A DNA stretch of 64,000 bases from Lytechinus pictus (taxonomy: Eukaryota): NCBI RefSeq assembly GCF_037042905.1, contig NC_087245.1, forward strand, positions 28,584,001 to 28,648,000, given 5' to 3'. Position numbers and translations under genes: made by a program. The number at the start of each line of letters is the position of its first letter. The first letter of the stretch is position 1. The notes beneath the pieces are model-generated. The model searched no databases, had not been told where the DNA came from, and was given only the letters and a program-made list of their open reading frames with translations. Below, in pieces: positions 3,275-64,000 of the stretch.

Positions 3275-5950
3275 TCATGAAGTAAACTCTTTCTCACGCT
3301 TAGCCTTCATAGCTTCGGCCATCCAGTCCAGCTGAGCCAGGAGCTTCTCGGCCCCTTTCTCCATGTACTCGTTGAGGGGTTTCCCCTCTTTGCTGATAGC
3401 GTTACCGACGTTGGGGATGCCAAAGATATTGGACACGCTGATGCAGCCCATTTCGCCCAGGAATGCCCTCAGCTGAATGGCGGCCCTCATCCCACCATAA
3501 GGACCTACGGGAATGAGAGAAAAAAAATCAGGTGATGACTTGCTTTGTCATGTGATCATATATCAGACACATGTCAGGTACAGCATGGACCTACTACAGT
3601 ACTCTGTAGGTCCATGGGTAGATCTACAGAGATGCCAACGTTCTTCAACCACAACAACAAAAGTAGAAGGAACAAAAAGGGATGGATGAGAGCAAAGATA
3701 ACCAATTTAATAAATGAAACTTAATACAAATGGTTTATGACACATTTTAATCTTTTTTTATTTATTCTTAGAGAAAATTTCAATTTCACATTTGAGTAAG
3801 ATTTAACACACACTCTGTAATGCTTTATTAATATTTACTCTAATACAGACCCTTTGAACAAATAATTGTTTTAGATTTAGTTCACTAATTAATGTCTGAA
3901 AGTTATATAAGGCTGTATCCTCAAATTTCCTACCTATTAGATGCAAGCGGGTGAAGTTGTGTATCATTTATCGAAAAAGAAAAAATAGTCAAATTATCGA
4001 ACACTCCCTTTCTCTTATCATTGTATTTTTGGCATGATCAAATTAACATTTTCTCTTACGTACCACTTGTTAAGAAACCATTTTTCACACAAATTTATGA
4101 CAAATAATGTTCCTTAGATTCACAACAACTAGACAAGACTTTGAATATTGCATAGATCTGGGGCTGTAACAAAGAGAAATAGCCATGCATAATATTTAAA
4201 ACGATAGTATCTTTTATTTGCACATGGTTGCCAGACTTACAGTTACACACGTTGTACAATTTACTGATTGTATCTTTTCTAAAACAGGCCCCTGGTAAAA
4301 TGAAAAATTACTAATTTGGAAGAATACAGGGAACACCAGTTTACCTGGGGAGTAACATACGATCCCCGAAGGCTTGTAGCTGAAGATAGACGCAGGGAAG
4401 TAATCAAATAGATTGCTAAGACCTGGTGGGATGGAGTGATTGTACTCTCCAGAGACCACAACATAACAATCGGCAGCAACGATCTTTGTCTTTGCTTCCT
4501 GAAGGATAGCAGGGGCTTGCGTCTGGTCCGTGTAGAAGTGCAACGGTTTGGTCAGGATTGGAAGATTCAGTTCCTGTGCATCTGTGGAATTTGAAAGATT
4601 ACAGAAATTGGTTGGAAAGGAGAAAAACAAGCGAGGTTTCAATTCCAGAATATTGTAAAGACACCCCTGTGCAGGTGGGAGATTACTCACAATTTTCACT
4701 TTATGCAAACAAACCAGCTTCTGTGATTGGATTGCTCTCTTTTTTTAAATCAAACAATTACAACACAATGTTATACAATTTGAGCAGATTTTTGTGTTTT
4801 GTACCAAGCCCCTGAAAATTTCTTGAAATCTAACTAAGACAGGAATCTACTGTCAACTCTCATTGTAATCTCATTCAGCTCTGCAGGCCCGGGGGGGGGG
4901 GGGGGGGGCAGTTCCATTGATGAGTGGATACCATGCGTGACCAAAAACATGTAAAAAGGATCTCTCTTCCAATATAGGGCATGTTACATAAGTAACGTAA
5001 TAAGGGTGTCAAAAACTCTCAAATAATGAAAAAAAAGATATTTCGCTAGGAAAACTATATGTGCTTGCGAGGGTATAAAAAGACTAAAATACTCTATAAA
5101 GGATGTACTTTTTGCCCCAACACTACGTGTTTAGGGTCCAAGTTGAGCGAGGTGTGGGGAGGTACTAAACCCAATGAAAGTAAAGGTAAAGCCGACGTCC
5201 ATGATCATGCCCGTGACATAACAATTAGATCTAAGATATCGTTGTACTTGTTTAGGGGGTCGATTCAGGGAATACTTGTCAAGGGTACATTTTTTGTTTC
5301 AAATACACGATAGGGTTTGACATGCCAATACTTTTAAGAGGTGCATTTTTTCAGAACATGGAAAATAATTGTTTAGGATGCTTTTCGAAACCCCATGGTT
5401 ACACATGGTATCTACTCGTCGATGGAAGTGCCCACCCCCACCCCCCCCCCCAGGTCTGCAGGTGTTTGCAAGAAAATATTTGCAATCAATTGCAAATTTC
5501 AGATGCAAATTTACAATACAGATTAATTTTAAATAGTAAAAGTAAAAACAAATAAATTTATTATTGTTGATGCAAGTAGCAGACCATCATAGATCTACCT
5601 ACTACTACTACTACTACCGGTAGTAACTTTAGAAATTATTGATTTGGGGCTAAATTTGACTTACATTGCAACTTTGTAAGTAAAATTTATGCAATGGCAT
5701 TGAGACTAAGAGCAACAACTTAATTGTTCACAAAATGGGCTAAACATATCACTAAGCTATAACTTGAGCTAAGATAGGGCATGAGTATTAGGAATTAGGC
5801 CTCGACTATATTTGTTATACCCATAAAATGCACGTCATGTCCTCTTGCTTTCAGTTGGTTGATCATGAAGTTTGCCACTCGAATCCCGACTCGTCCTTCT
5901 CTGCATGTTCCCAGGAACAGAACTACTTTCAATCCGCTTTGTGTTGCCAT
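3275..5950 (-). CDS. NAD(P)H-dependent FMN reductase / quinone reductase-like flavoprotein (flavodoxin-like FMN_red family), 3 coding exons, 198 aa
   Basis: Exons 5950-5821, 4581-4345 and 3504-3275 have GT-AG boundaries and consistent phase (130+237+230=597 nt). The protein starts MATQSGLKVVLFLGTCREGRVGIRVANFM and contains SGEYNHSIPPGLSNLFDYF, YKPSGIVCYSPGPYGGMRAAIQLR. These match the G(S/T)xRxG FMN phosphate loop, the EYNxSxP motif and the KP..GG.RA motif of the family. Confidence 0.92.
4888..5454. mobile_element. Non-autonomous DNA transposon (MITE family A), intron 1 of the reductase gene
   Basis: TIRs CCCGG(G)n-CAGTTCCATTGATGAGTGGATACCATG / CATGGTATCTACTCGTCGATGGAAGTG(C)nAGG, with 8-bp TSD TCTGCAGG at 4880-4887 and 5455-5462. 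Two more copies lie in the window. Confidence 0.9.
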
Positions 5951-7150: not shown

Positions 7151-7423
7151 ATAAGTATAGGGGAGGGCGGGGTAAGTTGCGCATAGGGGCAAGTTGAGCC
7201 ACCACCCCCAGGCTAAGAATGAATGAGTCAGAAATTGTGGTGGTGTCATGCATTGATGATCCATTACATAACCCTTGACCCCACCACATTGTTTTCAACT
7301 TTGAAACAAAAAGTACCTTTTTAGAGGAAAAATTTCAGCCAAAAAAGTAAAAAAGGGTGTGAAATAGATATGTGCTTTTTACCCACACACGTTTTAAAAT
7401 ATAATAAAGAAATAAGAACAATA

Positions 7424-8408
7424 GGGGAAGGCGGGGTAAGTTGAGCATAGGGGCAAGTTGGGCCACCACCCCCAGGCCAATAATGATTGAGTCAGACATT
7501 ATGGCGGTGTCATGTATTGATGACCCATTACATAACCCTTAACCCCACCACATTTTTTTCAACTTTGAAACAAAAAGTACTTTTTTAGAGGGAAAATACA
7601 AATTTCAGCCAAAAAAGTATAAAAAAAAGGGTGTGAAATAGATAAGTGTTTTTTACAAACACACGTCTTTACATATAAAAAGACATAAGAACAACATTGT
7701 CAGTCCAGGTATGGATCTTAATTCTTGTCACAGTCTTTTACATGATGGATGCATAAGAAATGTGTTGATGCGAAATTATCGCATTAATTTCGGACTGGGG
7801 TAAGTTGAGCCAGCCAACATGGGGCAAGTTGAGCCATGGTAATTCTTATGGTAATGTAAATAAAAAAAACAATCAAACCTTAAAAAGCCATCGATATGCA
7901 GGCAGAAAAGAGCAAATTCACATGACAGTTCTTTTACTTTTAGAGAATGTTAGTATTTATAGAGAATTAGCAAGTGAAAAGACTTTAAATTGGCTGGCAT
8001 GCTGGTTCTTCCCGCATACATTTTGTACATAGTTTTTGTGGCTCAACTTACCCTAGAACAGTAGCGTACCGTGAACCGCAGGAGACAAAGCATTGGGGGG
8101 GCAGTGCATTGTCTGTGAACAATGCTTTGCCCCCCCCCCCCAATGCTTTGTCTCCTCTGAGTCACGGTACGCTACTGCCCTAGAAGGTGGCACAACTTAC
8201 CCCACAGATGGGGCAAGTTGTGCCACTTGACATCGTTTTTTTTTCAAAGGTCACAACGACTTTCAGTGTGGGGGTAGAACGTTATAGGTGAAAAAGATTT
8301 CCCAAGAATCATATTCAAAGGCAAAGTACTTATTTCTACAATATTATTAGTCATATCAATTCTATCATGCAAAATGCAAAAAGTGTCACAACTTACCCCG
8401 TCTTCCCC
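7424..8408. mobile_element. MITE family C, inner copy inserted into the outer copy
   Basis: TIRs GGGGAAGGCGGGGTAAGTTG / CAACTTACCCCGTCTTCCCC with TA duplication at 7422-7423 and 8409-8410. Confidence 0.9.
8059..8177. mobile_element. 119-bp palindromic hAT-like MITE
   Basis: CAGTAGCGTAC...GTACGCTACTG termini, near-complete hairpin and 8-bp TSD CCCTAGAA (8051-8058, 8178-8185). It is absent from the equivalent site of the outer family C copy near 8775. A related terminus occurs at about 20313. Confidence 0.9.
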
Positions 8409-9237
8409 TATTGTTAGTCCAGGTATGGATTCTCATTCTTGTCATAGTCTTTTACATGATGGATGCATAAAAAATGTGTGGATGTGAAAATATCGCATTA
8501 AGTTTGGACTGGGGTAATTTGTGCCAGCCAACATGGGGCAAGTTGAGCCATGGTAATTCTTATGGTAATGTACATGTATAATGAAAAATAAAAAAAAACC
8601 TTAAAAAAGCCATTGATATGCAGGCAGAACGGAGCAAATTCACATGACAGTTCTATTACTTTTAGAGGATGTAATATTTATAGAGAATTAGCAAGTGAAA
8701 AGACTTTAAATAAAAAATTGACATGCCGGTTCTTCCCGCATACATTTTGTACATAGTTTTTGTGGCTCAACTTACCCCAGAAGGTGGCACAACTTACCCC
8801 ACAAATGGGGTAAGTTGAGCCATTTGACACCGTTTTTTCAAAGGTAACAAAGACTTTCAGTGTGGGGGTAGAAAATTATATATAGGTGAAAAATATTTCT
8901 GAAGAAATTCTTCAATATTATTAGTCATATCAATTCTAACATGCAAAATGCAAAAAGTGTCACAACTTACCCCGCCTTCCCCTACACTTAAAATATCTTG
9001 TATTTTTTATGGTCGAAAAGTGTGAAATAAAGATTTAACCAGTTTTCTCAGACATCTTTGGAAAATCCGGCAGCAGAGTCCGTGTCAACATTTATAGACG
9101 TTAAAGAAAGTGAGAGGGATGGTGTGCGTCAGAGACGTTCAGAGAAAACGGAAAAGAGGAATCGAAAGGAAGGAATTAACTTATCCTTTAATTTCTTCTC
9201 ATCATGAATAAGCCCTCAACTAGATTCTTGATTAGTC

Positions 9238-19699: not shown

Positions 19700-22400
19700 A
19701 CATGTTTATTAAGGGATCCATTTTCTAAAACATTGACATTAACATAAAAATAATAATTAGCATCTACCAAGCATTAAATTGTATTTTAAAAAATGAAGGC
19801 AATGCATAGCTAAAAAGGGCTGTTACTGGGTAAGGGTAGTATGGGGTGGGTATATAAATGTACAAAAATAGGATTAAGTACATTTTTCTACATTGTACAA
19901 TGTTTGTTAAAATTTCATTCAAAGGATCTCGATGAGCCTATAGTTAATATTCCATAAAAGAGCATAAAAACCTTTGATATTCGTTTATTTTCTTCCACAA
20001 AAGTTTATCACTCAAAAAAATTGGTAAATTCCTTTCAAATTTGCTGACAAGAAATAGTCTTCTGATGTGAGAGCACTCCTCATAAGGGGGGGGGGGGGTG
20101 GGACACAATGCCAGAATCCTAAAGAGTGCCTTCCCCAATCAATACATTAGTGAATCATTAACAAAATTTGATTTGTCTACTGTCACTGTGCTTAGAATTC
20201 AATCTATTTTTAAAATATAGTCTATTTATATATTATTGCAGTGGTAGCCCATTTCACATTTTTTTAAAATGAAGATAACAATAAATGCAACTAAATAATT
20301 TATGAAGACTTGCAGTGGCGTACCGTAGGTCACGGCATCGGGGGGGCACCAGCAAAAATTTTGAGACCGTTTCATATCTCTTCTTGGCACTTATGTTGTG
20401 ATACCAGTACTTAAACAGCTTAGGAAGTGGGAAACCTGCATGGTAAAAAAGAGAAAAGAACATAATAAGCTGTAAATTATTTTTACTCATCTAGTCCAGT
20501 TTAGTAAAAAAAAGATGTAAACTCTATTTTATATCTTCAGTGATAAAACAAGTTTAGCACATGCAGTCACTTTCGTCCCACATCCAGATAAATTCATATA
20601 TCAATATAACTATCTACAGTATGTTTTGAAAATAAAGAGTGAAAATTAATTCAAATATTTATCAGAATTTTGTGATAACTGTTAATATCTTGGGTTTTTT
20701 ATGCAAATGCATGTATAGACAGGAGATATGGATAATTAGTATGCAGTGTTAGAAATGGAAATACTGGTGAATCTGAATTCAAACAAATATTAACTCACAA
20801 TGGAACTTTAACATTACATGATATCGCATCATGTTTCAGCACAATTGGCCATAGCCCACCCCCTCCCAAAAAAGGGGAAATATTCATTTATTTATTTATT
20901 TATTTATTTATTTTTTTTTGGGGGGGGGGGGGGTGATGAGCTTAGATACAGCCTGTATATTATCAAAACAGTAAGCATACCTTGCAATTTTTCCATTCAG
21001 ATATCCTGTTCCTCATTAGATTGTAACTAACACTTGCTAATCGGCATGGTTCTCAATTTTGTACTTCTGACTAGGTGTGAACTGCTAAGAACTTGGTCCC
21101 ACTGGATCTGCAATTGACAATTTAAATTTGAGAGTTTTAGAGATAATAAAATTACCCTTCTTAAACAATATTTTTGAAATTTCCAGCTGCCCATATCCCA
21201 GGTCTATGAATGAATATTCCAAACTAGAACAAAAAAGTTATCTGGACCCGAAACTTCATTCTCTATCACATAGAGGCATAGGCCTACCTCACTCTGTTTA
21301 TAAAAGTAAAATGATTCCAACCACATATTTCTACAGCTGTATATAGCTGAATCTGGTCTATGCTGGGCCTGTATAACTTAAGAATAACATCACATTTGAA
21401 TGAAGTAAACACTAAGAACGTTTTCAAATTACCACCCCAGGCCGGACCCAGGGTATCCTGTTCAAATAGACTTGATTTAGGTCTAGGGTAGGCTACGCCA
21501 TTTCATTCAAATCTAAGACTAAGACAAGTAACACTTAACATAACAGACATTAATGCTAAGTCAATCGTATTTCAACACTGATTATTCTGAAGTAAAGCGT
21601 TCCTGAATAAAAGAAACTGCTGAGAATTATACTTATTCATATGAAGATGAAATAGAGGGGACGGACTAGGCCTAAACTTCAACTTTCAAGCTTGAAGTTT
21701 GGGCCTAGTCCGTCCCCGCTATTTTCATACCCCATGACTACATCGACAATCTCGCTCGGCTAGCACCGGCGATATCAAAGGCCGGATCCCGCTCTGACCA
21801 TATCCCTACATTGACCTAAATTTGAATAGGCCTAAAATCGACAGTTTGTCGTTACTAAAAAACAGGAGGTCGGAAACAAGTCCACATCTACCCCTGATAA
21901 TTGTCTAATCACAATAAAACTAAAATAAATGTTTACTTTGGACCTACATGAAGCATTCCGATGAATGTCTAGATCTACGACAAACTATAGACCCCTAGTC
22001 CTAGATATAGTATTTTTGAGAAACTCAATGATCACACTTATTTGGAAGTCAGGCAAAAGAAATATATTGAAATTGAGGTTTACATACCGTAGTGCGTAAT
22101 ACAGGATGAGCCCCGAACCCCGGCAAACACATTACAATTTGCAAGTGAGATCAAAACATGAAAATGAGCGTAACTTACTTTTATTCCTATGGAATGTCAT
22201 TAGAATAGTATTGATGTTCCCTCCAAGATTTTCCGCTCCAATGAAGTTCACTCAGAAACCATGATTTCGAACATCAATTATATAAACAGATAATTAGTCT
22301 AGCTATTTCGTTTCAGAAACTTCAAATTCGCAGAGTCCAAAAGAACGACACTTCGCACAGATATCGTAGGGAATTGTGGGACGGAAAAAAATGTTTAATG
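19700..22400 (-). ncRNA. Candidate spliced, polyadenylated long non-coding transcript (3 exons)
   Basis: Donor GTAAGT after 22179 (alternative GTATGT after 22088), internal exon 21107-20981 (TGCAG acceptor, GTATGC donor), strong pyrimidine-tract acceptor at 20435 and minus-strand AATAAA at 19705-19710. A CpG-richer promoter-like patch lies at 22330-22620. Only very short ORFs were found across the junctions. The 5' end is approximate. Confidence 0.4.
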
Positions 22401-48100: not shown

Positions 48101-51100
48101 TAAAAGGATTAATTACACTTAGCATTAACAAATTTAAGGTGCCAACTCATGTCTTCTTTCTATGATTATCTGTTTTGTAAATCATCAAAACCCCATTTGT
48201 ATATATATTGCAATCATCCTAATGGAAATGAAGTGATATTTGCAGCAGTCATATGGCCTTCAATACCATATTCAATTTTAATATCAGTGTTAAACGTGCT
48301 GGTCTTTGCAGGATGCTGAGTTTGATCTATCAGGTGTACATATACGTACATGCACACATATACATGTAATTTTATCCTACAAGACTCCAAAACCATAAGA
48401 AATTTTTTACGAACTTATCTGTCTTTACTGTACATGTAATACAACAACTTAACAAAGAACTAAATAAAGAATGAGAAAAAAAGAGGGAAAGTTATTCAGA
48501 TCTAAAAACATCAACCTTTCTCTATCAACTTGCACTTACATGGAGACTAACAGAAAAGCTATCGGAGGCAATACAGTGCTGACATTTATGGGAATATTGA
48601 TTGATTATTGATCTAATAATTGATTAACTACTGCTCAGTGAAATCCATATTAACAGTCAAGCCTTGAATAAAGTTGGAATAAAATATTTATTGATATCAA
48701 TTTCAATTGTGATGCATTTTTCTGCTTAATAACACAGCAATAAAATTATGCTTCTCATCCTGAATGCAATATTGATTTTAAATAAGGACGGTTTGATTTA
48801 TCTCAAGCTTTGATAGTAGAGTGTATACCGAATGAAAAGATCTTATCATGTGAGAATAATAATTTTTCAAATTTGTAATTTGTCAGTACTCAGTAATAAA
48901 CTTTTTAAGCAATAATCAGGGGCTGTATTTTGAACATTGTCTTTTCTCAGAGATAAGACAGAATTGGTATTCTGGTGGATGTCATAACTTATGTCATAAA
49001 TTTTGTCTCTCCTCTTTAGCACACACCAAAAACACACGATTCAAAAGCACACAATCCAAATATACAAGCAAAAGATGATACCATAGTACGATAGTATCTT
49101 GATACCATGCAAACTATATGTCAATCATACAGTGATCATATTATTATTCAGATTAGATTGTTGTATAAGTTTCATTCATCATCCATGACTATTTTCAGAA
49201 ATATTTTTTTTCATGCTACAAGTTGTTAGGCAATAGATATTAATTTCTCTTTACTTTCTGTTTTTCCTTTCTTTCAATCTCTCTCTAAGGTCTGAAGATC
49301 CTTCTCAGCTCCATATATCTCTCTTCCCCGGCCACTTACATTGACGAGTGGATACCATGCGCGACCAAAAAAACACGTAAAAAGGATGTCTTATTCAAGA
49401 TTGGGCACGTTACGTACGTAACGTGATAAGGGTGTCAAAAACACAAAAATAATGGAAAAAGGGTATCTATTTCGCTAGGAAAGTTACGTGTTTAGGGTCA
49501 AATTTGCGGGGATGATGAAACAAAATTAAAATGTTTTATAAAGGATGTCCTCTTTGCCCCAACAATACGTGTTTAGAGTCCGATTTGCGCGAGGTGTGGA
49601 AGGTGGGGCCGTGCACCAAATGGTGTGTAAAGGTAAAACCGACGGCCGACGGACCCGTGAGATAACAAATATCGCTGTACTTGTTTAGGGGTTCATTTCA
49701 GGGAATACTTGCCAAGAGTGTTGTTTTGTTTCCAATACTTGTTAAGGGTAGGGTTTCAGACGCTAATACTTGTTAAGGGGTGCATTTTCAGAATATGGAA
49801 AATACGTGTTTAGGGTGCTTTTCTAGACCCCATGGTCGCGCATGGTATCCACTCGTCAATGGAAGTGGCCCCCCCAGGCTCTCTTCGCAATTAAGCGCAC
49901 CAACATACGCGCAGTTGTGTGATGCCAGCTACTATATTGAGGATACGCCGATGCGCTACCAGGCCTAACTATTGGTTAGAAGGGCTCCCACTCAGATCTA
50001 ACTGTGATTTTGATTAGTTTGCTTTCGAAAAGATGCGGGGAAATTATACGAAAGGGAAAATACAATGTTCAGAAGACAGGTTTGTGACAATCATAGTGAT
50101 TGTCATAGCGATTTCGGAGAGAAAGACAAGATTTATTACGAAAGTTATGACAGTGTTCCAGACTACCACCCATGCATGGTCATCAAAATATTTGGAATGA
50201 AGAATCTATCAAAAGATTAAAAGATAAAACTTTTCAGAGGCTTTTGAAACATAACAACAAAGTGATTGATGAGTACAGTGTAGATTCAAGTATTGCTGTA
50301 CATGTACTACATGTACATTGTTGAGAACATTATTGGAATAGCATTACAGAGTATCCAGGCAACAGAGTATCAGTTTAATATTAACAGATTTGTTCTTAAT
50401 ATATGCACACATGCATACCACATTGTGTTTGTTTGTACAATTTGCAATTTATTTTCAGTCAGAAAGTGAAAAAGCGTATCGTGTTCAAAAACTTACGCTA
50501 CCTTGTTTTCCATCCCCTAGGGCACATGACTTGATATTTTGTGGTTTTGTTTAGTCTTTGCGACAATTTTTTAAACAGGCCTACATAGAAATGACAATTA
50601 TTGACTGAGTTTCAATTATAAAACGTGTTACAAGATCCAATCCCTAAAACAAACAAAAATCAGTGGCCCATAAAGTGTTAAAAACTTTAATAAGGAACTT
50701 TGTCATTATGGCCACTACCATAGTAACTGGGATTATCAGCCAATCACAATATAGCCTGCTGATGTAGTTACAATAACACCAAAGTTACCATGCATGTAAT
50801 TGTAACTCTTTATGAAACAGGCCCCTTGTAGCAAACAATATTAAATAAAAGTAAAATAAAAATGTAAGAATTAAATGTAAGCAGCACATGGATGACTTCT
50901 CTTTCATCTAGACTCATGTGTTTTTCACAATCCATAACCAAGGTACACCATGTTATTCTGAGCACCCATATTTATAACTTAAAGATCAATAATGATACAA
51001 AGGGGCATAGCAAGCTGCAGCAATCAGGGTATTATGGCTGTATAAGAGAGAGCAGACAATGCTGGGGGAAGAAGTGGGTTCATTCAAAATAATGGCTGTA

Positions 51101-54100
51101 GGAGGAAAAAATCGATAACACCTTAGTGACCAAGATACTACAGGGATGTAAAGGGGATTAACAATGCTAACTGGTCCCTGTACTGCTGCATACTGGCCAG
51201 CTCATGAGGGGAAGCTCCCCCCCCCACCTATTCCCCTTTTCCATAATTTCTTTTTCTTCAATAACATGCCATTCTCTCTCTTTTTTCCCCACAAATTGAG
51301 TAATTTCTTGGAACATCTATTCTTATTAAGTTATTCCATTATTTAATGCTGAATTCTTTTATCTTATCCCAATCTCTCTCTCTCTCTTCTCAATTTCTTG
51401 TAACAACTAACATGTATCTTAATATCCTAACGTCTCTCTCTTCTCAATTTCTTATTTCATGTTATCATACTATCATTTTTTTCTGGGATTACTTTTTATC
51501 TTATAAATGCCAATCTCCCTTTTTTGTAATTTCATTTTCTATCTTATGATATTCTCTGAAGTCTTTCACCCATCCACCTCCTTTTAATTTGTGTGTCCTA
51601 AAATACACTGCAGGTTTTTATGAAAAATGGTTCTTCAACAAAAATGTGTAGAACTGCAGCCAAAGTCTACAGTATAGTACAAGGTGTATGTAGGTCAAAA
51701 TTTACAAATATTCTTTCAGGGTCCACTTTTCACATTCTACTCCTGAACATTGGATAAGCGTTATTCATTGCAAAGAATGGGATATTTCTTTTATCATTTC
51801 GGGGATGAAATCGCCCAGAGTCCCTGTGTATCCCCCCCCCCCTCCCTCTCTGAATATCTTTCAGAGTATTGAAATAATTTGTATTTTAGAAGTCTTGAAC
51901 AACAACAAAATATCCAGAATCTCTAGTTCCCTACACACTCAAGGTGGGTTTTGAACCATGGATGTGCATACATGTACATGTATTTGCTTTACATGAATGT
52001 GCATCTGCTATTCTGCTTCATTAATATCAAATGTACTACAATTACACCTCCAATACTTGACAAATTGCAATATTGATTTTTATATTGAAAGTTTGATGCG
52101 TTAACATTTTTGATATGGCATTTTGGCCCCAGTACTGGAAAAATACAGAAGTATACCTAAGCTGTATTGTATGTGTGTACATGGGTCTTTCCATGAAGCT
52201 GGGGCATAAATTGTGACATTTCAACACAAGTTAAAAATCACAATTTATACATTCATTTGTAAAGACCATACAGATTTAGAATAATTTTTTAATGAAGTTA
52301 TTGAGCAAAGTAGCATCAGGATAATTACATTTGGTCAAAAAAGTCATATTATGGCAATTGGGTTTTCCAAAATTTGATACAATACAAGTACTACATGTGT
52401 ATGCACGAACCTCAGATTTCCTATGCAAACTGATATTTCAAAAAGAAATCTGAAAAACTTTCATTATGCTAGCAGGTGTAGCATAAAACTCTATGGTCTA
52501 AAGTATATGTAAATAATAAATGCATTTTAGTATTGAGTTATGCTGAAATGTCACTATCTACACACGCAGCCCAACTTCATGGAAAGACCAACAATGAAAA
52601 CTCTTACATGTACATGTAATTCCTTCATTAATTAATTAAAAAGGTGACAACAAAGACATTTACAAAAACATCAACATCCCACAACCCAGTTTTATATATT
52701 TTCTTGGTTTAAAATGAAAGTACAAGTTTAGATTGATTTTCTCATCAATCTTGCTGACTGAAATTATTCATAACTTTACTTATGGTGGTCTTCCTCAGCA
52801 GCACGAGCTAGAAAAGCCAATGTACAATATTGACAATGTACACAGATTCATTTCAGCTGTGGCATTGTACATATCGATACCCCCCACGAACAGATTGAAT
52901 AAACTTGAAGATCAAAGATATATTTCTAACCAAACAATAATGGGACGTTTTAGCAAATCGCACTGTTTACACGTCACCAGGCAACAAGGTTCAGGTATCT
53001 AGCTAAACGGTGAATGGATGAGTGCTAGCGCTGTTTGAATAGGAGATATGAAGAGAAATGGCATGGATAATGTACAAAGGTGAATTTATATTTGACAGTC
53101 AAGTGCACAATATGAGGCATGAGTTTACTTGTGTTTATTGGCTCTTTCATGAAAATGGGGGTGAAGTACATGTAAGTAGACATTGGGTGATTTCTTGTTG
53201 ATGCTGGTTCTGGTTTTGTTAGATTTTGGGGATTGTAGCTCCAACACTCTCCTGTATTTTATCGAGCTGACAAAAAAAATTCACATTTTGATGGCTCGAT
53301 GTAGCAAAAGTCATTCCAATATCAGCTTCATATGATTTGTTTCCGTGCTAGCTGATGTATGTAAACAGAAACACTGTGGTCCGTGTTCTCAAAAGAAGTT
53401 TCATTGTATCCTGGTAGAAAACCATGGACTATGCCGATTTCTTGCATAATCGCGCTTTCTTAGTACCCTTTGCCAAAAGATTATGCGATGAAATAAGCGT
53501 AATTATCAGCATATTAGTTCAAGGTTTGTACCATGATACAACTGACATCTCTTTCGAGAATAAGGGCCCAAACACCAAACTTGAAATCACCCAATTGGTG
53601 ATATGACTATGTGGCAACATTTAATGAGGACAGAATGCACTGGCAGGAGTTAAAACTTGGCAACAACACCCAAAGCATTTATTCTATATTTGACAGCTTA
53701 ATGAGTGTATTAATGTTCCATTCACCAAACATGAAGACAACTTTAAACATACCTTTACAGCTGGGTCTAGTGGGTCAGTCTGCAAACAATTAATTACATC
53801 ATGTAAATTAAATCTTGGTGTTATATTTAGGTTAGAACTTCCATAATAATGGAAACATCGTTTGTTCAAAATCATAAATAAATTAAATATCAAATGTTTC
53901 AATAGATTGAATTTTAATCTGGTCCAGCATATGTATGTACCCAACATTAGACAAAGGATTTTTGGACCTACAAAAGCAAGTACAAGTGTACAAGTTACAT
54001 AAATAAGATTCCTCCTCAATCAATATGGAAAATACACAGTATGATGTTCTTTTTTTTTCTATATCAAAAGCTGCAAATGTCATGCATGAAATAAAAATAA

Positions 54101-57100
54101 TCATGTGTGTTTGAAAGAAAGTGACATGCTTTCCATTCTTTCATGAATACAGCATACATGTACACGTACATAGTTCGATTGACAAAATTTTTCATGTAGG
54201 CACACTTACCGATAATCTTGTCTTTTGTGGAGTTAATGTTTGAATTTTATTGTACCTGGTTGGGAAAAAAGGAAGAAGAAATGGAAGGAATGAATTACAC
54301 ATTGTCATAATTGACAATTTATAACATAAATCTAATGACATTGACAAGTTGATTTGAATAAAAAGAAAATATATTCATTACATCAAATAAAGTTTTGCTC
54401 AATGTGACAAAAGAGAGTATATGAAGAAGGGTGATACATTAAAATGAAGGTGACGATGACAACAACACTCTTTTCTTCTTAACTTCATATGAAATATGAG
54501 ATATTTCAAACCTTAATCCTATTGGCTCAAACTTGAAAAACATCCAAGTACATGTACCATTACTCTTATTGTAGCTTTTTCAAAAATGAGCTTAAATTAA
54601 AAAATTTCATAAATTTAAAAGCAAAAAAACCAAACAAACATGTAACATCATATGCTTTCTCAGCTCCGAATCCCCTGTTGTGTTGGGTGAAATTAATAGG
54701 CAAAACTAACATGAATTTCTAATTTACAGATCTATCTGATTCATGAAATAATCAGTGTTATCCCTGTGTGATTTTTCCGTTTATTCAATTCATCATAAGT
54801 TGCGAGTGGATACTTGATTTAGTAAAAAAAAAAATATTCTGGAGCTCTAGGGAATCATTTTTTGGCAATTGTGACTGGCAGGGAAAGGGGAATTGTCGTT
54901 GCAAGCTTGATAATCAATGAAATAAAGGTGAGCTGTGGATCAGTGGATTTTGATTTATTCATGTGAACTGAATGACAGTCAGGGGATTGAATCCCACCAT
55001 GGTATTAAACTGTTAATCCACTTGTTCAACAAGGTTACAACTTACAAGCAGAACCTACATTTAATTCTCAGATCGCCAAATAACTAAAAACTTAAACCCA
55101 CTTGATTAACTATCAATTAGGTCTAATGGCCATTTGGTCTAAAAACATCACTTGGCCTAGTACTAGTAGATGGTCTAATTTCCACTTAATATACTTTGCA
55201 TTGTGCAAAACAAACACTACCGGTACTTGTACTTGTAGTTCATTTAACCACACACTAAATGGACATTAGACTTGGTGTGTTTGCTGGTCACATTTACTGC
55301 AACATCTCATCAAAAGTGATCATACAGTATGTGGAAAATCTCTACTTACATGTACTATAGTTTCTGAATTACCGGTAATAACTTTGTGTTTGTGGATGCA
55401 TATGTGCTGCCCATGATTACATAAATTATTTAAGATATATATCCCGTAAGTGAAGAAAACACTTGTTCTCTTGCAATACTTAGAGCTTAAATGGTGAACC
55501 ATGTGTAAACTGTCTGTGTGCATGCATGGGCGGCAGGGATATTTGATTAGAACATTTTTCGTAGGTGATTTTCAGAGCAATGACATTTCTATATTGGAAA
55601 TATGAGTGTGGTAAGGATGGATCTTAACTTTTTCCAATTTCCTATCACATTAGGGATATTCATAAAAGAGCCACATAATCTTTATCAATGAGTTGTAGGC
55701 CTATACAGTACATTTCATACAATCTGATTCTATTGACTTTCCTAGTTTCCTTACAGTTGTTTAAACAAACTTTAAATAAATGTTTTACAAATTCAACTTT
55801 AAATATCAATTTTCATGCAATGGATATTAATAATTCAACATGGTTGTTTAGCTTTAAATGTCAAAAGCTTTGTTTACAAAAATATTTATAGAATTCCTGA
55901 TCAATTCAGATAAAGTAAAAAAACAAGTTGCATCTTACATGTAAGACTTTTTCTTTTTGCTGTAGAGTATATCCACACGAAGCAAGATCTTTGACAGTAT
56001 TATGATACACACAGCTCCACAAAATTCTAAATGAACTTGCTAAACTTGATAAAGTTTCAATAATTTACTTCATGTACAACCTGGGTGAAAAGGCCTGCTG
56101 CTCTGCAGTGATTAATTCTAATCCAAATCACGTTTAAAGGATAAGTCCATCCCAACAAGAAGTTGATTTGAATAGAGAAAATCCAACGAGCATGACAATG
56201 AAAATTTCATCAAAATCATAAATAGGAAAACTAAGGCATATTATAGTTTTGCTTAATTTCGTAAAAAAGAAATAGGCACACCCTGATCTGTACGCAAATT
56301 GATGAAAGGACGGATGACATCACTTGAGACTATTCATTTGTATTTTAATATATGAAATATTCAAATTTTCTCCTTATTGTCCTGTGAAACAAAGTTTCAT
56401 TCCTAACTGAACATGTGGATTTACCATTGTTTTAATATTATGGTTCAATCACTTTGAAATGATGAAATATTACAAACAATAAAAAAACAAAGAGATACAT
56501 GTAGTGAGGGACATCATCGACTCTCATTTGCATGTCAATTAGTTGTGTGTATATACATCCATGTACATAAATGTTTTGCGAAAAATAGACAAACCTTCTT
56601 ACATGTAACACCCGATTTCGATGAAATTCTCAGCGTTATACTTCCTTTACTTTGATTTCTCTGTCAACAAAAAGGTTGTCTAGAAGTCCAATCATAAATA
56701 TCAGATCTAGTAGATATGTTTTCTTGTCAAAACTGGAAATGAAATATTCTCTCACTCCCCCCCCCCCCCAAAAAAAAGGATTTAAGGTAAACACCATAAA
56801 ATCATTAAAACTTTAAGCATGTTTGTTGCAATGTCATTATGCCTTCATGAAATAAAGATTTATAGATCTAGGTAGACCTAGATCTACTCTTCTCGTCATT
56901 CTTTAAGATTAGATCATCTGTAGTATTCTAGATCTACACATACAGTATAGCTAACAGTAACACCTTAGATTTGCTCCAATCTAGATTCTAGACTAGAGTC
57001 TCTACACAAAAACAGCCTAACATGCCACTGCCATTGGACACTACACACAAGTTCTTTTTCATTATCAAACATAAACATACCGGTAACCATCATTTCTGGG

Positions 57101-59029
57101 GATTTATTTAACAATTTCTGACATTTTACTACATGTATAATCCCCAGTGAGCCAACGCAGTTCAGCGGAACAACCAAAATACAGAGACTGAAGCTTTTGG
57201 TCTAAATCAAACATTGCAATGATGAACTAAATCTACACGCTGGCCTAGCTTAGTCTTGAGGACTCCATGATGATGTCTTTTTTAAATACTTTGACATATA
57301 TATACTTCTTCATCATTGGAGTCTTGAACCGCTTTTCCCTAGGAAATCCATCTTTTAATATAAAAATCATGTAAATTGTTGTGATTTTATTAATCTCTAC
57401 ACCTTCCTATGCCTAATGCGTAGGAAAGTTTAATAAAATGGCCAATTAAAATGTTCAAGAATGAAGGTTTCTTACCAGACCGATGTCGTGTAGATCCCTC
57501 GATCCAAATGTACACAACGCAAATACAATAGGGTCGACCCTTGAACCGCTTGTGTATGACGTACATCCGGTTAGCGATGCCATTTTGAAGAACAATTTAT
57601 AGATAAAAATTATTATTTCACAAATACTAAATTTATTACGTGATTATAAATAATTAGTATAATACTGCTAATTATTCATAATTACGTAATAAATTTTAGT
57701 ATTCAAAACGGCATCGCTAGTAACCGGATGTACATGTACGTCATACATAAGCGGTTCAAGGGTCGACCCTATTGTATTTGCGTTGTGTACATTTGGATCG
57801 AGGGATCTACACGACATCGGTCTGGTAAGAAACTTCATTTTTGAACATTTTAATTGACAATTTTTTTAAACCTTCCTACGCATTAGGCGTAGGAAGGTGT
57901 AGAGATTAATAAAATCACAACAATTTACATGATTTTTATATTAAAAGATGGATTTCCTAGGGAAATTCATCTTTGTTTACATGTGTCTCTTAAACACATA
58001 CCGTAAGGGTACTAGTATTCAACCCGTTTGGAGAGTTTCCTCAAATATATAGAAATATAGAATTTACCTGAATTTCAGACCCGTCTTATTTCCAAGAGCA
58101 AATGCTGGTTATTCTTTTTCCGTTATTTTTTTCTTCAACCAGTTGACTGTGTGCGCGGGCGATCGAATTATACGGCGACGGATTTTAGTACTAGTATTCA
58201 ACCCGTCGGTACTAGTATTCAACCTAGCGATGAAAGATAGCCCTGTCTCTCTATCTGCCCTTGTCCCATCCGACTAAGGACTAGACCATTTGAGATGAGA
58301 CCAAACAGGGAATTAATCAAGGCCAGAGACTTACATAGATCTAGATCTAATTTAGCAATCTAAACCCTTTTGAGATTTGCTATCAATCCTCACTAGGTTG
58401 AATACTAGTACCATTCAGTGCAAAAGGCCATCGCCGCATAATTCGACCCTCCGCGAATACAGTCGACAGATTGACAAAGAAAATATCGACAACAGATTAC
58501 CCTGGAAATAACAAAGGTGTGAAATTAAGATAAATTCCCCATTTCTAAATACTTTGGGGAATATGTCAAAATCTTTGAATTATGCCGGGTTGAATACTAG
58601 TACCCATACGGTATATGAAAGGCGGTTCAAGACTCCAATGATGAAGAAGTATATGTCAAACTCAAAGTATTTTAAAAAGACATAGGGCCTAGACATCATC
58701 ATGGAGTCCTCAAGACTAGGCCTAAAGTTACATGTAGCTACTTACTGATGTCTCTTGAATCCTTCACTGCCAGCTGCAACATAGAAATGGTTATTTTCAA
58801 TGCCTCCCAAATCTGAAACTGCAGTCCTGCCAGATGGTGTATATACCCGTCGTACAACACCACCAGTTTTTGTCTTCACTCTTAATGTGACAAGTTCAAT
58901 AAAAGCGTCCCAGTTTTTAACTTGTCGTGGATTGACGACAACCTTTTTACACTGAAAGTTTGTATCTCCATTCCGATAAACAAAAATACTTTTGGCCGGC
59001 GTTGATTGAAGAGTTGTTCCGGATGCCAT
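30164..59029 (-). CDS. DCDC2: Doublecortin domain-containing protein 2-like (two DCX domains plus long disordered C-terminus), 10 coding exons, 971 aa
   Basis: Exons 59029-58746, 54255-54210, 45510-45416, 44666-44535, 42921-42781, 41889-41793, 40324-40132, 36703-36563, 36034-35772 and 31687-30164 all have GT-AG boundaries and join in frame (2916 nt). DCX1 reads AKSIFVYRNGD...YVAAGSEGFK and DCX2 reads IYVFRNGD...YVAAGREAFKKVPY. The DCDC2-like segment SVFKA...GAAEVQE...IDLPIDQVAAEEVEEE is present. Extra small alternative exons are possible. Confidence 0.9.
38865..39110 (+). mobile_element. L2-like LINE 3' end fragment
   Basis: Encodes PKVSKTWGERSFVHSSSKLWNSLP, followed by an AAGCGCCTTGAG...GGTGCAATATAAGT stem and an (ATT)n tail. 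Confidence 0.75.
39123..39281. mobile_element. MITE family E copy
   Basis: GGCCCGTTTCACGAAG...TACCATGGTAAC...GCAGCCAATCAAAAT...CTTTATGAAATGGGTC. Confidence 0.7.
39858..40012. repeat. (TAA/CAA)n microsatellite
   Basis: Directly visible. Confidence 0.9.
40603..41600 (+). mobile_element. Helentron-associated non-autonomous element (HINE / DINE-1 / pearl-type) with internal tandem array
   Basis: Subterminal inverted repeats GTCTCACCTGCAT (40625) / ATGCAGGTGAGAC (about 41586). The tandem units have periods of 163, 162, 163 and 192 bp plus a partial unit. A (GCC/GTC)n microsatellite lies at 41488-41553, followed by a 3' hairpin; both flanks are A-rich. Confidence 0.85.
42400..42705. repeat. (TAA/TAC/TGA)n microsatellite
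   Basis: Directly visible. Confidence 0.9.
44742..44862. repeat. (TCCA/TCTA/TTCA)n tetranucleotide repeat
   Basis: Directly visible. Confidence 0.85.
44943..45390. mobile_element. MITE family B (G-tract termini, related in architecture to family A), full copy
   Basis: TIRs (G)n-GGCAGTCAAATGTATTGCTGTACACATGCGTGACC / GGTCACGCATGTGTACAGCAATATATTTGACTG(C)nAGG; flanks AGAGATAT / AAAGATAT (7/8 TSD match). Confidence 0.85.
49327..49878. mobile_element. MITE family A copy 3
   Basis: Same TIRs and interior; 8-bp TSD CTCTCTTC at 49319-49326 and 49879-49886. Confidence 0.9.
50664..50825. mobile_element. MITE family E copy
   Basis: TACCATAGTAAC...CAGCCAATCAC...CTTTATGAAACAGGCCCC. Confidence 0.6.
56138..56690. 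mobile_element. TTAA-flanked MITE copy 2 (diverged; right end approximate)
   Basis: TTAA-AGGATAAGTCCATCCCAACAAGAAGTTGATTTGAATA..., homologous to 28410-28937. Confidence 0.65.
57085..57204 (-). repeat. Dispersed repeat D, inverted copy
   Basis: Reverse complement of 6099-6223 with small indels. Confidence 0.8.
57251..58718. mobile_element. Large foldback element in DCDC2 intron 1
   Basis: Outer arms 57251-57334 and 58618-58718 (TAGTCTTGAGGACTCCATGATGATG / CATCATCATGGAGTCCTCAAGACTA); inner near-perfect palindrome 57335-57964 centred near 57660. Confidence 0.9.
58001..58611. mobile_element. TA-flanked MITE inserted in the right arm of the foldback
   Basis: TIRs CCGTAAGGGTACTAGTATTCAACCCG / CGGGTTGAATACTAGTACCCATACGG with TA on both sides, and internal repeats of GTACTAGTATTCAACC. 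Confidence 0.85.
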
Positions 59030-59460
59030 GGTGAAACAAAAGTCTGATCGACCAATAATTTGGCCGATCGGAAATTGTTAAAGAAGTTGTCCTAAACGTA
59101 TGCCGCCGACTCACATGCAGCTGCAATCACCACCTTACTACGGCGAGGCTCTGATCGATCCAGCGGCAATCAATGAACTACGCTCCCCGGGAGTGCAGGG
59201 TCTCATAACAGCTCACTCTCGCTACTCTAGATTCCGAAGACGGGAACACCTCCGCAAACATTGTTTAACTTTCAGAGAACATCTTGACACTTGATTTCAA
59301 CTTGCTGCTTCGAAACTGATTAGTCTAAACTTGTTTTTCCATAGAAGTTACAGCGTAAATAGTATGTTTGTACTTTCTTGTTTGCCACAAATTTCAGAAG
59401 TTTGTTTAATGAAGATGATACCGATTTTTTGCAGTGCATGCAGTGCATGATGGGACGACT

Positions 59461-59505
59461 TGTTTACAAAGCGTGTGTGTCAACATCTATGTTGTCCATA
59501 GTTAC
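59461..59505. promoter_or_regulatory. Forkhead motif and RFX X-box-like motif upstream of the DCDC2-like gene
   Basis: TGTTTAC at 59461-59467 and GTTGTCCATAGTTAC at 59491-59505, about 460 nt upstream of the ATG. Confidence 0.5.
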
Positions 59506-59897
59506 CGCATATAGAGCTTGCGGAAGATTCTTCCAGCTTCGTACAATTTCATTCAACCTTGCAACAATAGGGTTTTATTAGGAATTGCATTGTCTTACAA
59601 GTTCATTTTTGTTTGTCTTCTCGTTGAAGGGCAGAAATCATGCAATGATTTTACTCATTCGTAGGTTTAAATTTAGCTCCCCTCCCCTTGGCGCTCTAAA
59701 TAATTGCATTATTTGGCGAGTGCATGATGCCTAAAGTTTTGTCCAATTTCATATTTATAAACCCTTTTTTTCTTAAACAAATGCCGCTAAAACGAGTTTG
59801 AAATATCATAAATATCAACTGAAATAACATCAAAACATCAGCAGCAACGATTCAAAGGACAAGTTATTATGATAACCATCTCATCAAGTTTATGGAT

Positions 59898-60022
59898 ATT
59901 ATGATAATAATAATAATGATGATGATGATGATGATAATAATAATAATAAATAATAATATTAGTAGTGTTAATAATTATCATTATTATTATTATCATTGAA
60001 ATAATAACATCAATAATAATAA
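59898..60022. repeat. (TAA/TGA)n microsatellite
   Basis: Directly visible. Confidence 0.85.
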
Positions 60023-61009
60023 AAAGATATTTTAAAGATGATGAACAAAGGACTCTTAAGCGGCCAATTATTTACTTATTCTACTTATTAACTACAAATT
60101 GATGGCAGTCAGAAGCACTACAAAAAGGAGAAGGGGACTTAAAGCACCATCACAGGAGTGCAATTAGGAGGAAGAAATAAAAAGATAGAATCAGACTAAG
60201 AGAAAGAAATCAAGAAAGGGGAAAGAAGAATTAAGAAGGCGTGAAAGCGTTTTCAAAATATTCGATAAAAGTTGCCTATAAAAGAAAACTGTGTAATCGA
60301 ACTGCAAAATGAATGTCATGCACATGCGATATGAAAGCTAAAAAAGCGAGAGATTTTACATTATACCCAGTTGTTGTGTGTCCGGACAGGTTGTGTGTCC
60401 GGAGAATCAATTTTAGAAAGTCATTTGGAAAAAAATGAAAGCGAAGTTTCATAAATTTTTAGTACAAAATGTTAGGAAATAAAATAAAAGATGATTACAA
60501 GTATTGAATTCATATTTTTAGTGTAATCCAAAGACAAAGAAGAAGGCTTCAAAAATATAAAGTGTCCGGACACCCGACCCCCCATCCTACATTACAGTGG
60601 ATACACATTTTGATCGACCATTGTTTTGTTTTGGTTTGTTGTTGTTCTTAAAAGTTCGTTCAACCCTGTAAAACAAGCGCGTCGAGGCAAGCGCGTAATA
60701 GCTCCAGACCAAAGACCTTATAATATATTACTAGACCGAAAGCTGCGTGCGCGTTCAGCACAAAACAAATGAGATTAGGCTCCGCCTACCGCGATCATTT
60801 GAAGACAAAAATAAGCCCTCATTGACATTCATGAGCATGAAGATATTCATAATCCGGCCTTTTCATTGGCTAAGAGCGTCATTAATACGCGATTTCCCCG
60901 ATTCTTTGTCATCGATACTAGTGGTATCGTGTTACAGAAATAATTATTCATTTGACCTCATTACGTCATCTAATTTATTCATTCTGAAACTTTTCTTTCC
61001 ACACACAAA

Positions 61010-61029
61010 ATGGACCTACGAACACTCCG
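61010..61029 (+). CDS. Possible first coding micro-exon (MDLRTL..) of a divergently oriented gene continuing beyond the window
   Basis: ACAAAATGG start context followed after 20 nt by a consensus CG|GTGAGT donor. It lies downstream of a CpG-rich patch (60670-60970) with ATTGG (CCAAT) and TTACGTCA motifs. No downstream exon was identified. Confidence 0.35.
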
Positions 61030-62496
61030 GTGAGTACGTATAAATTGATATAACCACATTAATTCAGTGGACTATTTACACATTTCACACTGTATTTTGT
61101 GGTCTTAGGTTATTTCTTTAACAAATTAGAGAGTTTGCTATCATTCTTCTGTTAAAGGAAAGCAGAATTTGGTCTTTGAAATTGAAGTTAGATTGTCATC
61201 GTCGCCCAGTGCAGCCTGTATGTTGCTTGTAGTGTATTTTGTACGGGCTCCTAGCCGGCTGGGAATCGAGAGATAATCGGGCTGGTTTGGTTCACCTCAA
61301 ACAAGGACCAACCCACGATTGATTAAAACAAGAAGAATGAGGCTTCTTTTTGTACACTGTAACGTTAGATCTACAGGGAGATCTGCATCTATCTTCAGTA
61401 GATCGAGACTCAGTCAGGAATAAACTGTGAAGCGGAGTGTGGATGAAAATACGCCTGTCATTGTGTCACTGTCAGGCCTCACTTTGTTTCAGATATCAAA
61501 TTTATTTTGCATAACTTCAGGCTTCTGCATTTAGCCCCCACCATTTTAACTCTTATTGTTAATGTTATTCATAAATATATAGACTCGGTCTTAGAAATAA
61601 CATGCTGCTCTGCATGTTTGTCTTATTATCAATACATCTATGACCTAAATCTTCTTAATCCTAGGCCCTACTTACTTTATACTTAGATCTAGGCTACCGT
61701 ACCGTACTTTACTTTTATTTATTCATTGATGCTATCAAGAGCTAGGCCTACCTAAATAAAATCTAGGCCTAGTCTAACTTATACTTTCCCAACCCTCGAT
61801 ACTTACCCCCAGGGCTTCTGATCTAGGACTAGGTCTGTAATTTAGGCCTAGATCTAGGTCTGGGCCTAAACGACTCCATTTACATGTACGAGTATGACTG
61901 TCAGTGGACCAAGGAGTCGGACTAGATCTAGATCTACTCTCGGTCAATAATGGCAATGAAGTCTTAGCCAGGAATAAAAGTCAAAGTCAGACATCAAAAA
62001 TTTCTAAACCGATATAGGGTTTAGAACCGAAGCTTTACTTTCTTGGTCTAGATAGATCGAGAGTCCATCGTTAGTCTAGATCTATGACCTAATTTAGATA
62101 CATGAACGAGACTCAATGCTGTGCGACAGCATTGAGTCTCATTGGACTAGATCTATACTTTCTTACAAATAGATCTAGACCTAGTGCATGAGATTATGAA
62201 ATTATGTTAAAATCTAATGAAATAAGATTCGGAAATAAAAAGATCCAGATTTTTTTTTTTTTTGGGGGGGGGGCAGACGTACATGTAAAAAAATTTAGAG
62301 AAACCTAAAATTCAGAAAGCGAGGGCCAGAAGCGACCAATATTACCTAGGGCCGTTAAATGCATTTCCTAAAGTAAAATTGAAGGATGTCATTAGGAGTG
62401 GGCTATACATGGGTCAAATATACTTTTTTTGTAATTTCAATATGACAACAGTTTTTTTTTATTCCTTGTAATGTATCTCAACATGAAATGACAATA

Positions 62497-64000
62497 TTTT
62501 TTGTCTCGGGTCCGAGAAAAAAGTGTGCCGGGCCAAAATCCAAAATGGCCGCCAAAACCCCCCAAAATCACAGTTTTGGCCACAACTTTTTTATTTGGTC
62601 GTCAATTTCTCTGGTTTTGGTGTCTATTCATATGTTTTGGGGGGCAGGCAATTTGTTTTTTCTATAATTAGTACTTTTAAACCATTATTTGTTGAGTTAA
62701 AAGGTAATTATACCAAAATTTTCCCATTTTTGTAGCCCTTTTTCAGCCGAAAAGTAGGTTTTATCATCCTGGGGTTCTGGGATATTAAATGGTACGAGGT
62801 CGACAATAGCAAATCGCTTCATATAGCTATATTGCTTTTATTCCTCCACTTTGGGTTTTACGGATATTTGTGAAATATATCTTAGTAAATAAAAAAATGT
62901 CAATTATCCATTGGGGCTATACATATGTACAATGTACTGTACATACATATTGCACTGCATAAATGCATTGGCCACCATGACAGATAACAAGGCTTGTATA
63001 AACTATAGTGTCATAGCAATGAGCTCTCAGGTTTAGAATTAGATGCCTCAGAAATTGAAGATATGTTTTGTCTCAGAAATTGAGGACATGTTTTGTCAAA
63101 TATGCTAATTCAGGGGGCGGAGAGAGGTAATTTACACTGTAGCTATTCTGGGCCCCGTTGCATAAAAATTTACCATTATGTTAACTTAACTTAATGGTAA
63201 CTTGCATGCAGTCCTTTATTCTGATTGGCTGTTGATCAGCGTTACCATGATACTAGTAGTTACCTGACCCCATAAACATAGGCCAGTTAGACACTAGAAC
63301 CAGGTTTTTAAAAAGCCTCCAAATGAAGAAGATATGGCTAAAAATGTGATGTACGTATATATACATGTATGTGATATTTACATGTCAGTGTAATTTACGT
63401 TGCTGGTTTCACCTTGTACATCAGCTGAGAAGGAATCAAATTCACAATCTAATTCTAAACCTTTGAAGCTCATTTCTATGACACTATAGTTTATATACAG
63501 GCCTTGTCATATGCCATGGTGGTCAATGCATGGATATATGCAGTGTAGTATGTACAGTGCATTGTACACCGTATAGCCCCTATGGATAAATGACATTTTC
63601 TTTTATTTGATAAGATATATTTCACAAATATCCGTAAAACCCAAAGTGGAGGAATAAAAGCAATATAGCTACATGAAGCTGCTTGCTATTGTTGACCTCG
63701 TACCATCTAATATCCCAGAACCCCAGGATGATAAAACCCACTTTTTTACTGAAAAAAGGCTACAAAAATGGGAAAATTTAGGTATAATTACCTTTTAACT
63801 CTACAAATAATGGTTTAAAAGTACTAATTATAGGAAAAACAAATTGCCTGCCCCCCAAAACATATGAATAGACACCAAAACCAGAGAAAATGACCACCAA
63901 ATAAAAAAGTTGTGGCCAAAAATGTGATTTTGGGGGGGGGTTTTGGCGGCCATTTTGGATTTTGGCCCGGCACACTTTTTTCTCGGACCCGAGACAAAAA
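62497..64000. mobile_element. Foldback element with long (>500 bp) inverted arms, running off the window end
   Basis: 62497 to about 63045 is the reverse complement of about 63445-64000 at high identity. The mirror ORFs 62523-62735 (+) and 63778-63975 (-) show this. True termini lie outside the matched region. Confidence 0.9.

Follow-up and report, generated by a model that had tools for sequence, protein, structure and literature searches.

The closest described systems are the excision footprints of Tc1/mariner transposons, in which a duplicated TA encloses a few letters of the element ends. As far as the accessible parts of the published reports go, footprints measure 0-6 bp (PMC7913693, PMC9976928, PMC10992017), with 0-3 bp for ZB (PMC7913693), 0-4 bp for Passer (PMC9976928) and 6 bp for Minos (PMC10992017), and the +4 footprint of Tc1 (TATGTA/TACATA) is the commonest somatic one in C. 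elegans (PMC12632400). Akin to these footprints, the palindromic words described here consist of a duplicated TA around what may be a few element-end letters, with a putative net gain of five or six bases and, for the word TACATGTA, an A at position -3 of the flank. They differ from them, in so far as these partial sources describe them, in being natural and fixed, in their density of about 1.3 per kb, in their apparently uniform +6 and in the several putative families that occur together; moreover, the Tc1 +4 type is not enriched here and a GA-ended donor was not found in our window.

Footprints of Stowaway elements, together with re-insertion at an existing footprint, are described from intron 4 of Triticeae beta-amylase (available text of PMC1925063). 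As in that case, we deal with candidate historical scars read from alignments and with a new element seated at the TA of an apparently older scar (here at 58717), but the Stowaway case concerns one site and one family, whereas here there are many sites, chains of mixed words and a split in position. Family-specific integration bias is known, again from the accessible portions of the sources, for Passer (pogo) and ZB versus Sleeping Beauty (PMC9976928, PMC7913693), and excision that is enhanced by methylation is known for IR/DR elements (PMC3680223). Like these transposons and the IR/DR elements, the families considered here would differ in their bias to gene 5' ends, open chromatin and compact DNA; the published biases were measured on engineered-vector insertions in cultured human cells, whereas ours would be recorded in natural genomic scars. 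A literature search that covered few subscription papers returned no work that treats these words as natural scars or deals with where they lie. While excision footprints are textbook material, the position split between putative scar types, as drawn from four anchors in one window, is apparently new.

Palindromic TA-bounded words and the unit that holds their cluster

The window (the whole stretch of DNA that was analysed, 64 kb) is AT-rich (GC ~35%) with patchy CpG depletion, and contains FMN-reductase, mitochondrial ATPase-inhibitor and DCX-domain genes on the minus strand; when the DCX exon was compared with longer proteins, the three matches were all from Diadema sea urchins (71-72% identity). 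Over the whole window, five of the 16 possible TA-NN-N'N'-TA palindromes occur 14-20 times more often than a Markov-2 model predicts, the counts being 20 for TAGATCTA, 8 for TAGGCCTA, 43 for TACATGTA, 4 for TACCGGTA and 11 for TACTAGTA. Simple repeats aside, strong enrichment is confined to palindromic TA-N4-TA words, and all enriched words have the form TA..TA; TACATA/TATGTA shows no enrichment in the window (O/E 1.0). Not every occurrence is a scar: the element at 58001 has five TACTAGTA as internal motifs, a point variant within an element arm accounts for the TAGGCCTA at 21667, and the TACCGTA at 57999 forms the end of an element. TACATGTA is patchily distributed: ~25 copies lie along the DCX-domain gene body in its 5' half (45000-57200), as against just 4 in the first 25 kb of the window.

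A sequence-only reading of this DNA had pointed to a dense cluster of such words at 61640..62290, and the counts bear it out. This interval contains 12 palindromic 8-mers, the five kinds summed (7 TAGATCTA, 3 TAGGCCTA and 2 TACATGTA, with 0 copies of TACCGGTA), whereas 2000 dinucleotide shuffles yielded 0.14 on average and never more than 3. It also holds five 7-mers (TACCGTA twice, TAGGCTA once and TAGTCTA twice) where 0.57 are expected, and the imperfect variants TAGACCTA, TAGGACTA and TAGGCCCTA. When the window's 28 copies of TAGATCTA and TAGGCCTA (hereafter GA/GG words) were placed at random in 3000 trials, 651 bp never received more than 7, compared to the 10 seen in the cluster. The three chains that the same reading had reported were all recovered (starts 61683, 61842 and 61922; Table 1), and in the cluster as in other chains the members overlap by exactly one TA. 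As the chain at 61684 mixes different units, single-unit slippage cannot produce it. The proposal that chaining results from repeated re-insertion fared less clearly: 8 of the 10 cluster words are chained compared to 4.0 in a simulation of random re-insertion at any local TA, but this excess is only modest (P=0.022).

Table 1. Coordinates of words, chains, insertions, candidate donor elements and the amplified unit (window positions)
Feature	Position	Strand	Remark
TAGATCTA (three copies) and TACCGGTA, downstream of FMN-reductase first donor ~6048 (minus)	3619..5622	.	
TA-flanked elements, GGGGA ends	7160..8982	.	candidate source class for TAGGCCTA
GA/GG words downstream of putative first-exon donor ~22176 (minus)	21279..22003	.	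word at 21667 in element arm
TACATGTA as 6-base insertion relative to paralogous repeat at ~6170	57130..57137	.	no tandem duplication
TA-flanked inverted-repeat element, GTC ends	57253..58716	.	empty site reads TAGGCCTA
TACATGTA as TA plus 6 bases relative to opposite arm of own element	57731..57738	.	also perfect tandem duplication; cleanest site
TA-flanked element, CCGTA ends	58001..58611	.	candidate source of TACCGTA and TACCGGTA
CpG-rich putative promoter, ATG ~61010, GTGAGT donor ~61030	60670..61035	+	promoter predicted
Multi-copy unit with putative promoter and cluster	60709..62370	.	left edge ~60709-60728
Chain TAACGTTA + TAGATCTA	61360..61373	.	upstream of the 61640..62290 range
Cluster of TA-bounded words	61640..62290	.	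inside putative first intron
Mixed chain, 4 TA-sharing units (GATC, GGC, CCG, CCG)	about 61684..61706	.	
TAGGACTA, 6 bases extra in window	61824..61831	.	plain TA in X1, X7 and X12 contigs
Mixed chain TAGGCCTA + TAGATCTA	about 61843..61856	.	
Like-unit chain, TAGATCTA twice	about 61923..61936	.	footprint re-use or slippage both fit

The cluster was compared over 60060-62370 with contigs of four (X1, X5, X7 and X12) out of 15 candidate sequencing runs, which contain just 6-31% of words and none of which is shown to be from the window's own species. In contigs of all four runs the 3-base loop (62123-62125) of a 33-bp hairpin at 62108-62140 is reverse-complemented, a difference that is a micro-inversion between inverted repeats. 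The CpG-rich patch that had been noted beside the cluster is present (CpG o/e 1.28 in the 500-bp window at 60501 and 1.03 in that at 60751). What had been called a gene start is a putative promoter that lies in a unit of ~95 copies in organism A (both samples, X1 and X5) and few in organism B (X7), and is the 5' part of that amplified unit. Contig depth over 60700-62370 reaches 3229 in X1 and 6574 in X5, as opposed to 35 and 68 in the neighbouring flank. Two X7 contigs depart from the window at 60709 and 60728, the right edge of the unit was not found in the four runs, and the unit has diverged paralogues of ~90% identity. Among the X1 and X5 matches listed, no pile-up of loose ends of several contigs was seen at the unit edge, so that a tandem or segmental family is more likely than dispersed element ends. 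Most words in the unit probably predate its amplification.

The unit had no match in viral or metagenome contigs, Rfam had none in 54000-64000, and Pfam gave no credible match for the 44 ORFs of 59000-64000 (two weak matches fell below the cut-off). Low-depth X1 and X5 contigs depart from the window at 62355, adjoining TTAA, and 62498-64000 belongs to a large inverted-repeat element (arms >500 bp, 91% alike) that extends past the window end.

Insertions at TA, flanks and candidate donors

Comparison with a paralogue or an opposite element arm was possible for four TACATGTA sites (8571, 56496, 57130 and 57731), and at all four the word is a 6-7 base insertion at TA; one of these is at the same time a perfect tandem duplication, a mismatch or indel lies close to three of them, and the insertion at 56496 is not a tandem duplication. 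The sole paralogous test of TAGATCTA in the window, at 5226, gave an ambiguous alignment. TAGGGCCTA at 58683 belongs to a difference of 13 bases that is flanked by a repeat of 5-6 bases and is not centred on TA; there (58683-58691), the GTC element has 13 bases in one arm that the other lacks, in the form of a 5-6 base duplication round a short GGCCC core, possibly a scar of a different kind.

Between runs, the 6-base indel of TAGGACTA is resolved to TA in three of the four, although an imperfect tandem duplication is also a possible reading. None of the 12 indels listed, out of 117 in the four runs, exactly removes TAGATCTA or TAGGCCTA. Alignments between runs show more gaps in the cluster than in the promoter region, and gap totals (counted on contig pieces that overlap, one duplicate allele being left out) are divisible by six in 7 of 13 non-zero cases within the cluster compared to 0 of 14 outside (Fisher P=0.002). 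This count may be inflated, since a 6-base insertion in the cluster at 61898 (organism A) is not a word. Individual contigs are missing 18 bases with 0 added (X7 record 30), 12 bases with 0 added (X12 record 15), or 6 bases with 12 added (X7 record 32). The view that the words are recent insertions can hold for a minority at most: in one organism B contig (X7 record 30) no more than 3 of the 8 spanned words are missing, and most cluster words are shared by relatives, being common to organisms B and C. At another locus, X1 and X5 contigs show a 5-base difference, with TAGGCTA extending TAGGCCTA, that could be due to slippage or imperfect tandem duplication.

A perfect tandem duplication of flanks is possible for just 5 of 20 TAGATCTA, 0 of 8 TAGGCCTA and 7 of 43 TACATGTA. 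The flanks themselves differ by word, with A at -3 in 42 of 78 half-sites of TACATGTA compared to 35% (P=0.0005, uncorrected) and in only 11 of 30 half-sites of TAGATCTA. Sleeping Beauty prefers ANNTANNT as target, according to the accessible part of PMC2756404; the flanks of TACATGTA agree with this preference and those of TAGATCTA do not, as expected if a different enzyme was involved.

Several other sources were considered and rejected. CpG decay of TACGCGTA, which should yield its sibling words in equal numbers, is at odds with the siblings found (1 TATGCATA, 3 TACACATA and 0 TATGTGTA versus 43 TACATGTA), and RIP (CA-to-TA), which should remove nearly all CA/TG, with the CA/TG o/e of the cluster (0.66/0.72, compared to 0.05/0.04 in the RIP-like locus L092). 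Academ-type (TAG...CTA-ended) remnants are expected to have a 3-4 bp direct repeat flanking the word, and inspection by eye of the first 8 TAGATCTA listed revealed none.

The inner letters of the words had also been matched to element ends in the window. This stands for the elements at 58001 and 22937, which start with TA followed by CCG and CCC, respectively, and fails for the family (C) and the repeat (D) that had been named with them. As GG donor, family C was rejected because the target duplications of the three copies taken as family C are 8 bp long and not TA; as GA donor, a dispersed repeat starting TA-GA (~6099/57204) was rejected because its other end differs and it has no terminal inverted repeat. 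The TA-flanked inverted-repeat elements observed start CCG (58001), CCC (22937), GGG (7160-8982) and GTC (57253-58716); the 64-kb window contains no GA-ended one, though TAGATCTA is the commonest cluster word, and no CA-ended donor was identified in it. GA-ended families may already be in published repeat libraries. No transposase domain was detected in the 129 window ORFs scanned, which span parts of the window. We take the element at 58001..58611 to be Tc2-like. In light of its empty site (Table 1), the GTC element sits on the TA of a word and would be a live intermediate of chain growth, and its excision with a 3-nt stagger would yield TAGTCTA/TAGACTA.

Two repeat families have additional features. 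One (4890-5453, 9238-9762 and 49330-49875) has CCCGG/CCTGG ends followed by G-runs of a length that varies by copy, and 8-bp target duplications. The other, the dispersed repeat of ~130 bp (6099-6222, 15983-16058 and 57084-57222), adjoins three CpG-rich patches; its copy at 6099 overlies the FMN-reductase 5' region and contains a GTGAGT donor-like site, and its first letters resemble those at ~60731.

The mixed chain was also found in viral contigs (62 loci, 3 with at least 4 words) and in metagenomes (at least 129 stretches). Most chain-bearing contig loci are AT-rich without CA/TG, were read as fungal RIP repeats and were dropped; among the pairwise alignments listed for the 53 remaining loci, no informative word indel was seen. 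RIP-like JAABU* contigs (L063-L141), AT-rich with almost no CA/TG and a CpG o/e >2, hold the chain in repeats 4.2-7.4 kb apart, and the words can thus form without scars. On an animal-like contig (L102, 1-2000), 18 TAGATCTA lie among TAC/TAG triplet runs and thin out away from a CCAAT-bearing left end. On a GC-rich eukaryotic contig (L113, 1654-1680), a chain of TACATGTA, two TAGATCTA and TAGGCCTA is located just past a stop codon, which places the word set outside animals.

Position of the words relative to first exons

The cluster words had been said to concentrate near gene starts, unlike TACATGTA, and this split holds in the window even when the cluster is left out. As anchors we used four first-exon donors placed from the sequence, at 6048, 22176 and 58742 (minus) and at 61030 (plus), which were picked after the words had been seen, with 22176 unconfirmed and n small. 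The 2.5 kb downstream of these donors (16% of the window) contain 24 of 28 GA/GG words compared to 8 of 43 TACATGTA, and the 1.5 kb upstream contain 0 GA/GG words. For the cluster-free count, everything beyond 60600 was left out, the words at 21667 and 58717, which lie in or at elements, were dropped and clumps were merged. With the three donors then remaining, GA/GG and TACATGTA events lie downstream in 6/12 versus 1/34 cases within 1 kb (circular-shift P 0.006), 6/12 versus 2/34 within 1.5 kb (circular-shift P 0.014) and 8/12 versus 5/34 within 2.5 kb (Fisher P=0.0015; circular-shift P=0.005). GA/GG words outside these zones are at 15243, 16633, 46100 and 55696; the IF1 first exon, sought as a blind fifth anchor, gave no candidate, and 15243 and 16633 remain unexplained.

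The surroundings of the words differ as well, with a mean CpG o/e of 0.43 for TACATGTA and 0.59/0.61 for TAGATCTA/TAGGCCTA, against a background of 0.48. Since 6-base intronic insertions should be alike to selection, and since CpG is absent from TAGATCTA, TAGGCCTA and TACATGTA, we infer that the split stems from neither selection nor decay. For TACCGGTA and TACCGTA, CpG survival alone could explain the position.

How the words may have arisen

Taken together, our results make it fairly probable that the words are footprints accumulated through excision of several TA-targeting transposon families, with chromatin-dependent insertion or excision as the likely cause of their split in position. The families would be cut-and-paste transposons of the IS630-Tc1-mariner type. 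Insertion of an element at TA would duplicate the TA, and a staggered cut on excision would leave a few end letters on each flank; end-joining that keeps four letters would then give TA-XY-Y'X'-TA (net +6), while three letters with a central mismatch would give the 7-mers (net +5). Three-letter overhangs can supply both, as annealing of the last two letters produces 8-mers and a central mismatch 7-mers; 8-mers would also result if a pair of end letters were retained on either flank. Every scar brings a new TA as a target for the next insertion, hence mixed chains. Scars of G-ended families would accumulate within the first 1-2.5 kb behind first exons and those of CA-ended families would not, the likely cause being that families differ in how chromatin affects insertion, excision or both, in CpG-rich promoter-proximal DNA versus the CpG-poor gene body.

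As a scar requires insertion as well as excision, the split can be read equally well in two ways, one of them being that open chromatin is targeted. The other, a sub-case of the footprint explanation that is opposed only to its wording as targeting, is that position shows where families excise, not where they insert: G-ended elements would leave unmethylated promoter-proximal DNA, and CA-ended ones methylated compact DNA as well or better. The low CpG around TACATGTA fits this, as does the report, in the part of PMC3680223 that is accessible, that CpG methylation boosts excision/transposition of Sleeping Beauty, Frog Prince and Minos and not of Tc1, Himar1 and Hsmar1. We regard it as possible but doubtful, because the flank preferences differ by word, so that target selection probably differs too, and because GTC- and CCG-ended elements are still in place within a first intron. 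It is quite unlikely, and about equally so, that the cluster is a quirk of a single amplified unit, be it a mobile element or the 5' end of a multigene family, and uninformative on host promoters, or that no transposon was involved at all. The former would account for the copy number in organism A, for the X7 contigs that leave the window at the unit edge and for a word density in the cluster 2-3 times that of the other three zones; yet the bias is also seen behind the first exons of the FMN-reductase and DCX-domain genes, outside the unit, and on L102 (one locus, selected by pattern) the words fall off as 9, 4, 3, 2, 0 and 0 per 500 bp. In the latter case the words would grow in unmethylated, CTAG-rich first introns by slippage or by templated repair through short duplications and fold-backs, a view favoured by like-unit chains at 58336, 61923, 45749, 51969 and 52605, by the perfect duplication at 57731 and the imperfect one at 61823, and by a C or G adjoining TA in 19 of 30 TAGATCTA half-sites. 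CTAG is indeed denser in the zones (words collapsed, 4.1/kb versus 1.6/kb elsewhere), but this 2.6-fold excess is far below the ~24-fold excess of words (20 in 6 kb versus 8 in 58 kb); besides, most words match their flanks at fewer than four letters, and mixed chains require different units.

Two remaining explanations appear less plausible still. In hAT hairpin footprints the flanking target duplication serves as template for the inserted letters, and TAGATCTA might be such a footprint at TCTAGA-centred 8-bp targets, with the target duplicated and its inner letters trimmed. TAG-centred 8-bp target duplications do occur in the window (family C copy ~9238; element ~8060) and 9 of 20 TAGATCTA match one flank at two or more letters, but the other 11 and all 8 TAGGCCTA are without the required two-letter match, so that hAT footprints were rejected as a general cause and could account for a minority at most. 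Marginally less credible again is the idea that selection maintains the words as transcription-factor sites within a first-intron enhancer. Their proximity to promoters and the sharing of most of them between organisms B and C would suit this, and the NACC1 BEN domain has been crystallised on an oligo containing TACATGTA (available portion of PMC11472053). Against it, the cluster varies more in length between runs than the promoter does, words also lie inside and at the edges of transposons, the five palindromes have only their TA frame in common, and the overlap in chains is exactly TA.

If the words are excision footprints, they have a practical bearing on such genomes, where promoter-proximal palindromes returned by motif searches may be neutral scars, not factor sites. 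Excision normally leaves no countable trace; were the words scars, the insertion-and-excision history of each family could be mapped by k-mers against chromatin, and family-specific target or excision bias could be tested in natural germlines, not only in cell culture. More tentatively, TAGATCTA and TAGGCCTA might mark the first kilobases of germline-open promoters and TACATGTA methylated gene bodies, a family-coded fossil chromatin map that we consider conceivable, with the balance of likelihood against it. If it is true, the ratio of TAGATCTA/TAGGCCTA to TACATGTA could find germline-active promoters of sea urchins and other invertebrates from sequence alone.
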